From Escherichia coli (GTDB lineage Bacteria > Pseudomonadota > Gammaproteobacteria > Enterobacterales > Enterobacteriaceae): DNA of 64,000 bases. Location of the stretch: assembly GCF_003334305.1 (NCBI RefSeq), contig NZ_QOWS01000024.1; one strand, given 5' to 3'. Below the pieces are notes generated by a model. The model made no database searches. It had not been told where the DNA came from and saw only the letters and a program-made list of their open reading frames with translations. Position 1 is the first letter of the stretch. Each line of letters opens with the position of its first letter. The translations under genes and the position numbers were made by a program. Shown here one piece after another: positions 19,539 through 19,881 of the stretch.

Positions 19539-19561
19539 TTATCCACTATTCCTGTGGATAA
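19539..19561. promoter_or_regulatory. Inverted pair of DnaA-box-like sequences upstream of uvrB
   Basis: TTATCCAC-N7-TGTGGATAA read in sequence; DnaA box consensus TTATCCACA. Confidence 0.5.
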
Positions 19562-19865
19562 CCATGTGTATTAGAGTTAGAAAACACGAGGCAAGCGAGA
19601 GAATACGCGGCTTGCACGCGAATTGGCGTTAAAGACGGCTCAATGAAATATCTTTTATTTTTTAACTGGTTAGATAAATGCAATGGCAGTCACTGAACAG
19701 GCATCTCTTGCCATAAAACTGTCATCACTCATCTTGACAAATGTTAAAAAAGCCGTTGCTTTGGGGATAACCCGGTAAGGCCGGAGTTTTATCTCGCCAC
19801 AGAGTAAATTTTGCTCATGATTGACAGCGGATTTTACGCTGTATCAGAAATATTATGGTGATGAA

Positions 19866-19881
19866 CTGTTTTTTTATCCAG
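19866..19881. promoter_or_regulatory. LexA (SOS) box of uvrB promoter
   Basis: CTGTTTTTTTATCCAG (CTGT-N8-CCAG), immediately followed by a TATAAT -10 hexamer. Confidence 0.8.

Follow-up and report, generated by a model that had tools for sequence, protein, structure and literature searches.

Assignment of an inverted DnaA-box pair upstream of Escherichia coli uvrB to the DnaA-reactivating sequence DARS1

The inverted pair of DnaA boxes in the bioD-uvrB intergenic region of the E. coli DNA analysed (hereinafter the window, meaning the whole stretch of 64,000 nucleotides) was assigned, with very high confidence on the basis of its sequence, to boxes I and II of DnaA-reactivating sequence 1 (DARS1). 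The complete element consists of DARS1 and the uvrB SOS box and has already been published: DnaA binding was described in 1985, DARS1 in 2009, and combined DnaA/LexA control in 2018. The identity of the element, its architecture, its non-random occurrence and its deep conservation were all observed in the present analysis; DnaA binding, the release of ADP and the consequences for initiation and transcription come from published work. For E. coli nothing new is added by this assignment, which reads a real, functional element correctly. The sole lead with some novelty is the wide spread of DARS-type modules near repair and restart genes.

Results

Locus and box architecture

According to the MG1655 annotation, the gene order of the locus is bioB-bioF-bioC-bioD, a 578-bp gap, uvrB, and then ybhK on the other strand. 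Positions 19380-19960 of the window (581 bp) were 100% identical to several E. coli chromosomes, in which uvrB was annotated at the right end of the match. All but one of the 5426 complete E. coli genomes contained this 581-bp stretch; the 76-nt DARS1 core stretch, at an identity of at least 97%, was present in the same proportion (5425/5426). Two of the 5428 places matching the DARS1 core were plasmids, not chromosomes. Compared with MG1655, the intergenic region contained six SNPs and one indel, none of which fell within the DnaA boxes or the other elements discussed here, and the core stretch (19538-19575) was identical to MG1655 from 813106 onward. Further, the primers used for the deletion of DARS1 (PMC4585315) matched the window from approximately 19359 to 19875. 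No feature was annotated in RefSeq (PGAP) under the DARS1 core (window 19525-19600) in any of the listed E. coli genomes, so readers of the sequence by itself will keep rediscovering DARS1.

Table 1. Features of the bioD-uvrB region and their positions in the window
Feature	Position	Strand	Description
bioD	18696..19379	+	From the ORF list and the K-12 annotation; 3' gene of the bio operon; its stop opens the 578-bp bioD-uvrB intergenic region
DARS1 box I	19539..19547	+	TTATCCACT; 1 mismatch to TTATNCACA; DnaA-box7 or box5 in the numbering of Wurihan
DARS1 box II	19553..19561	-	TTATCCACA; perfect consensus; plus-strand letters TGTGGATAA
DARS1 box III	19565..19573	-	TAATACACA; 1 mismatch; 3 bp past box II and oriented the same way
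Conserved flank after box III	19574..19613	.	Invariant alignment columns GAAAA (19580-19584) and CGCGG (19607-19610)
Degenerate DnaA box	19762..19770	-	TTATCCCCA; 1 mismatch; each of the 9 positions at least 90% conserved in 10 genera; ChIP-seq peak centre falls on the box
uvrB LexA (SOS) box	19864..19883	.	AACTGTTTTTTTATCCAGTA; CTG-N10-CAG at 19866-19881; conserved in 11/11 related loci and in the alignment
Proximal promoters	19882..19919	+	TATAAT 19882-19887 (assigned to uvrBp2 -10); TTGGCA 19891-19896 and TAAAAT 19914-19919 (assigned to uvrBp1 -35/-10)
uvrB coding sequence	19958..21979	+	From the ORF list and the K-12 annotation; 673 aa

Three DnaA boxes were identified in the core (Table 1), with a layout of 9-5-9-3-9 and with 1, 0 and 1 mismatches for boxes I, II and III, respectively. 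Boxes I and II are arranged head-to-head and are separated by 5 bp; TTATCCAC at 19539-19546 corresponds to the first eight letters of the box I 9-mer, and box II was the sole perfect DnaA box within the 64-kb window. The initial annotation had described the pair correctly and had missed the third box, TAATACACA. The opposite orientation of boxes I and II with a 5-bp space is part of the published definition of the three-box core of DARS (PMC6868365), and box III was found beside box II in the same orientation. A complete consensus in box II and one mismatch each in boxes I and III have been reported for DARS1 (PMC11724364), and the same pattern was found here, together with the location between bioD and uvrB and the identity to K-12. 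DARS1 is placed in the promoter region of uvrB in PMC5835720, according to which a DnaA-interacting sequence was already seen there by van den Berg in 1985.

About 42 bp beyond box III are needed for full activity, as cited from Fujimitsu (2009) in PMC4585315. We infer, from our own mapping of the coordinates, that the conserved flank at 19574-19613 matches this stretch of about 42 bp, which was reported as needed for full ADP release.

Single DnaA boxes were not enriched in the window, with one perfect box observed (1.84 expected) and 48 that deviated from the consensus at no more than one position (47.4 expected). A head-to-head pair with a 5-bp gap was expected 0.011 times per 64 kb, and none of 5000 first-order Markov simulations gave the full three-box layout.

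Boxes I and II are also contained in a perfect 9-bp inverted repeat (GTTATCCAC-N7-GTGGATAAC) at 19538-19562. Such a repeat could in principle be an RNA hairpin, for instance one that terminates or attenuates transcripts reading through from the bio operon. In the terminator scan, 19538-19562 came up as a stem of nine pairs, and RNA folding gave -16.3 kcal/mol (z = -3.6). This explanation was nevertheless considered extremely improbable. The stem is not followed by a U-tract, the next bases being CATGTGTATT, and a stronger hairpin is located directly after bioD (19391-19442). In addition, the arms were invariant from E. coli to Pseudoalteromonas and showed no compensatory changes, while the loop varied, which is the pattern of a protein-binding site rather than of a paired RNA. 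A search of 19300-20000 against Rfam at a permissive threshold yielded just two chance-level eukaryotic matches.

The hairpin at 19391-19442, directly 3' of the bioD stop (GGTTAAATTGC...GCAATTTAACC), had a folding energy of -20.9 kcal/mol (z = -3.7) and is a candidate terminator of the bio operon, though it has no clear U-tract. Part of it was conserved in Enterobacteriaceae.

Conservation of the uvrB-linked module

A motif scan for TTATCCAC-N6-TGTGGATAA, performed with one genome per species and anchored on the motif, detected at least 120 loci. Of the 120 matches listed, uvrB was present at 20. In 19 of these 20 loci uvrB was downstream of the pair and on the same strand as box I. Among the matches listed, the distance from the module to the uvrB ATG was 355-470 bp in Citrobacter, Enterobacter, Pantoea, Rahnella, Photorhabdus, Rosenbergiella and Vibrio, and 0.45-3.3 kb in Shewanella, Colwellia, Pseudoalteromonas and Aliidiomarina. 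A third box with at most two mismatches was found exactly 3 bp off, on the uvrB side, in 17 of the 18 orientable loci among the matches listed (Enterobacterales, Vibrio and Alteromonadales; L027 left out).

In the loci of Pseudoalteromonas, Colwellia and Cognaticolwellia (L020, L032, L071 and L112), an ORF of approximately 460 aa on the same strand separated the module from uvrB and abutted the uvrB start. The N-terminus of its product was putatively MATE-transporter-like.

The intergenic region was also compared in an alignment of ten Enterobacterales sequences from ten genera, with a mean column identity of 57%. The longest invariant run consisted of box I, ATTCC, box II, CC and the TGTG of box III, and was followed by the partly conserved 40-bp flank. 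The box I sequence was unchanged in all ten sequences except at position 9, and the TGTG core of box III was invariant. The spacer ATTCC (19548-19552) was likewise invariant in all ten, and it varied in Vibrio and Alteromonadales. DnaA-box recognition alone does not require such a fixed spacer; its invariance may reflect an overlap with the weak LexA-box4 or with elements of the P3 promoter. Further, a CTG-N10-CAG box was present 54-143 bp before the uvrB ATG in all 11 loci of Enterobacterales and Vibrio.

Fujimitsu et al. (2009), as cited in PMC6090056, had already noted a DARS-like sequence in the vicinity of uvrB in Vibrio cholerae; thus, the conservation of the uvrB-linked module extends published work modestly at best.

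DARS-type modules at other genes

The third box was not confined to the loci with uvrB. In 77 of the 121 core occurrences listed, a third box with at most two mismatches lay precisely 3 bp from the core on one side; by chance, 0.8% would be expected to have one.

A module upstream of priA was found in 16 loci among the matches listed, belonging to Xanthomonadales, Chromatiales (Thioalkalivibrio), Oxalobacteraceae and Cycloclasticus (L013, L025, L046, L049, L056, L066, L083, L093, L095, L102, L104-L106, L108, L109 and L121). The module was located 67-162 bp upstream in 13 of these 16 loci, and box III was on the priA-distal side in all of them (16/16). Boxes I and II, 5 bp apart, both matched the consensus perfectly in most cases, and box III was 3 bp off. 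Upstream of xseA, the module was found in four of the listed loci, all betaproteobacterial (L021, L028, L110 and L114), at a distance from the gene start of approximately 220 bp in three and 563 bp in L021. In addition, the module adjoined an ORF of 181 aa, for which no NCBIfam match was found, in six loci of Pseudomonas (L017, L019, L022, L023, L061 and L103).

Just four of the 120 listed loci were near dnaA, dnaN or rpmH, and none was near mutH. Given how few of them adjoin dnaA, dnaN or rpmH, the motif matches are not mainly boxes of origins or of dnaA promoters.

Tentatively, the three-box head-to-head module may be an old and widespread DnaA nucleotide-exchange element that was repeatedly placed at the control regions of genes for DNA repair and replication restart, a proposal that we regard as possible and no likelier than that. 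Among the matches listed, the control regions concerned were those of uvrB in three gammaproteobacterial orders (Enterobacterales, Vibrionales and Alteromonadales), of priA in Xanthomonadales, Chromatiales and Burkholderiales, and of xseA in some Betaproteobacteria. Outside E. coli, nucleotide-exchange activity of the modules is predicted from their architecture. If the proposal were true, the ATP/ADP cycle of DnaA would be coupled to the expression of uvrB, priA and xseA in many lineages. In the limited literature covered, nothing relevant was found on DARS-type modules outside Enterobacterales and Vibrio, which does not in itself prove that they are unpublished.

Control region of uvrB

The LexA operator pattern CTGT-N8-CCAG (CTGTTTTTTTATCCAG) was identified at 19866-19881. 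It is a palindrome with an AT-rich centre, is located 92 bp before the uvrB ATG, abuts the TATAAT assigned to the -10 of uvrBp2 (Table 1), and is overlapped by a weak DnaA-like 9-mer (TTATCCAGT) at 19874-19882. The same site has been published as LexA-box1, which lies between the -35 and -10 elements of uvrBp2, overlaps DnaA-box1, and was protected at the lowest LexA concentration in footprints (PMC6015884). The pattern alone is weak evidence, as four matches to CTGT-N8-CCAG were found in the window and 1.18 were expected. The further matches, at 40311-40326 (-), 46299-46314 (+) and 62244-62259 (+), are probably not LexA sites because their centres are GC-rich.

The consensus promoter scan gave a match of 10/12 for TTGGCA-17-TAAAAT. 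It located the proximal P1 hexamers alone, and no P3 hexamers were detected by it near the DnaA boxes. We infer the assignment of the proximal hexamers to P1 and P2 from the text of PMC6015884.

Three promoters have been described for uvrB; on the distal one, uvrBp3, the DARS1 boxes correspond to DnaA-box5, 6 and 7, within -567 to -280 (PMC6015884). In the same study, DARS1 was strongly protected by ATP-DnaA in DNase I footprints, a TG-to-CA change in DnaA-box6 (the perfect box II) raised uvrBp3 activity 5.9-fold, and dnaA(A345S) raised chromosomal uvrB transcription more than threefold. The DnaA boxes act on the distal uvrBp3, not on the LexA-controlled P1/P2 approximately 300 bp downstream. 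Repression of the distal P3 by DnaA on these boxes has been published (van den Berg, 1985; Wurihan, 2018), and LexA would repress the proximal P2 through the box at 19866-19881.

The initial annotation had placed the inverted pair about 300 bp upstream of the LexA operator and had proposed that the replication initiator, in addition to SOS control, acts on the uvrB promoter. All of these elements were found where they had been described, the start of the LexA site being 327 bp from the start of the DnaA pair, and both the DnaA and LexA motif scans and the published mapping of the uvrB promoters agreed with them. The proposed DnaA input is borne out by the footprint, the box mutation and dnaA(A345S); it is directed at uvrBp3 and not at the LexA-controlled promoters, and it is not new.

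DnaA ChIP-seq and a second conserved island

Binding of DnaA at this position, the lack of which had been named as grounds for rejecting the initial annotation, is present in both the footprint data (PMC6015884) and the ChIP-seq data (PMC11317965). In the latter, a bound region was labelled DARS1 with the double box cTAATACACAtggTTATCCACAg, which corresponds to the minus strand of window 19552-19574. The coordinates in Table 1 of the ChIP-seq study fit the frame of NC_000913.3, not that of NC_000913.2 as given in its footnote; this was checked at polA, purH and datA, where the boxes given are 1-12 bp from the centres of these strong peaks. The centre of the DARS1 peak (813331) corresponds to window position 19763, which is 200 bp downstream of the core and is the largest offset measured. 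The peak was weak (16-fold), and the offset may result from imprecise centring of a weak peak. Alternatively, in vivo occupancy may extend across the wider uvrB control region or have its centre elsewhere in it. No evidence contradicting the identification of DARS1 was found in this analysis.

A second conserved island was observed between DARS1 and the LexA box (19733-19771). It comprised TTGACAAATGTTAAA, which was kept in Enterobacteriaceae, Pantoea and Rosenbergiella, followed by TTTGGGGATAAC, which includes the degenerate DnaA box TTATCCCCA. For the TTGACA in this island, no fitting pair of promoter hexamers was found.

Discussion

Role of DARS1

Nucleotide exchange on DnaA is the established main role of DARS1, and promoter control is secondary. 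According to published experiments on the identical sequence, ADP-DnaA would first occupy the perfect box II. The bound DnaA would then recruit further protomers, which would lie head-to-head with it across 5 bp at box I and head-to-tail across 3 bp at box III. Head-to-head contact of the AAA+ domains, dependent on Gln208, would lead to the release of ADP by the protomers on boxes I and II; none would be released by the protomer on box III. The resulting apo-DnaA would rebind ATP, so that more ATP-DnaA would be available for the next initiation at oriC. The reaction is stimulated by DiaA, and IHF and Fis are not needed for DARS1 (PMC6868365, PMC11724364). ADP release requires just DNA and DnaA, and the head-to-head geometry is needed for it (PMC6868365). 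The initial annotation is thus partly supported: it is correct as far as it goes but omits the function for which the inverted arrangement matters.

It could be argued that the boxes are solely or mainly a transcriptional operator that tunes uvrB, and that reactivation is without importance in vivo. The protection of the site by DnaA and the effects of the box II mutation and of dnaA(A345S) described above are in favour of this, as are the fixed orientation of the module and its distance of about 355-470 bp from uvrB in Enterobacterales and Vibrio. However, the same three-box geometry occurs at DARS2 beside mutH, and upstream of the unrelated genes priA and xseA, and this suggests that the module has a function of its own. 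In Colwellia and Pseudoalteromonas the module is separated from uvrB by another gene, and DnaA and DNA are sufficient for ADP release, as noted above. Further, deletion of DARS1 decreased the number of origins per mass, increased mioC expression and caused a fitness cost, which was strongest in mouse colonisation (PMC4585315). An operator role as the sole or main function, with reactivation unimportant in vivo, is, therefore, very unlikely, and nucleotide exchange is retained as the main role of DARS1. The relative weight of nucleotide exchange and promoter control in vivo is not a matter that a sequence can settle.

Yet another explanation is that the cluster is a passive titration site for DnaA that serves as a reservoir, as part of datA does, and is not catalytic. 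High-affinity boxes are present, and the fraction of DnaA found bound was lowered by deletion of DARS1 in single-particle tracking (PMC12371093), both of which speak for it. The initiation mass, however, falls with extra copies of DARS1 and rises on its deletion (PMC4585315, PMC5835720), whereas pure titration predicts the opposite direction, and ADP release needs the head-to-head geometry. The chance that DARS1 acts by titration only is accordingly taken to be negligible, in favour of its role in reactivating DnaA.

Comparison with known systems

The core described here is that of K-12 DARS1 (Fujimitsu, Senriuchi and Katayama, 2009): the core sequence, its position, and the spacing and orientation of the boxes are the same, with no difference in the core. 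The intergenic region of the present strain differs from the DARS1 region of MG1655 by the six SNPs, which are outside the core. In the literature on uvrB P1, P2 and P3 (Sancar, 1982; van den Berg, 1985; Wurihan, 2018), P2 carries the LexA box and P3 the DnaA boxes, the very elements listed in the initial annotation. The boxes are treated as operators in the uvrB promoter literature and as a catalytic DNA site in the DARS literature, and both views fit the same bases.

The double boxes in the promoters of nrdA, polA, purH, mioC and dnaA have the same head-to-tail 3-bp spacing as DARS1 boxes II and III, but lack the oppositely oriented third box that is tied to ADP release. DARS2, upstream of mutH, shares with DARS1 the 9-5-9-3-9 layout, the head-to-head arrangement of boxes I and II as well as the function in ADP release; in MG1655 its core was found at 636-644 (+), 650-658 (-) and 662-670 (-) of locus L002. 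In contrast to DARS1, the boxes of DARS2 are all imperfect and of low affinity, and DARS2 needs IHF and Fis on a flanking regulatory region. The datA locus is, like DARS1, a non-coding cluster of DnaA boxes that alters the nucleotide state of DnaA. It differs in that it promotes ATP hydrolysis, thereby inactivating DnaA, and needs IHF, whereas DARS1 does the reverse.
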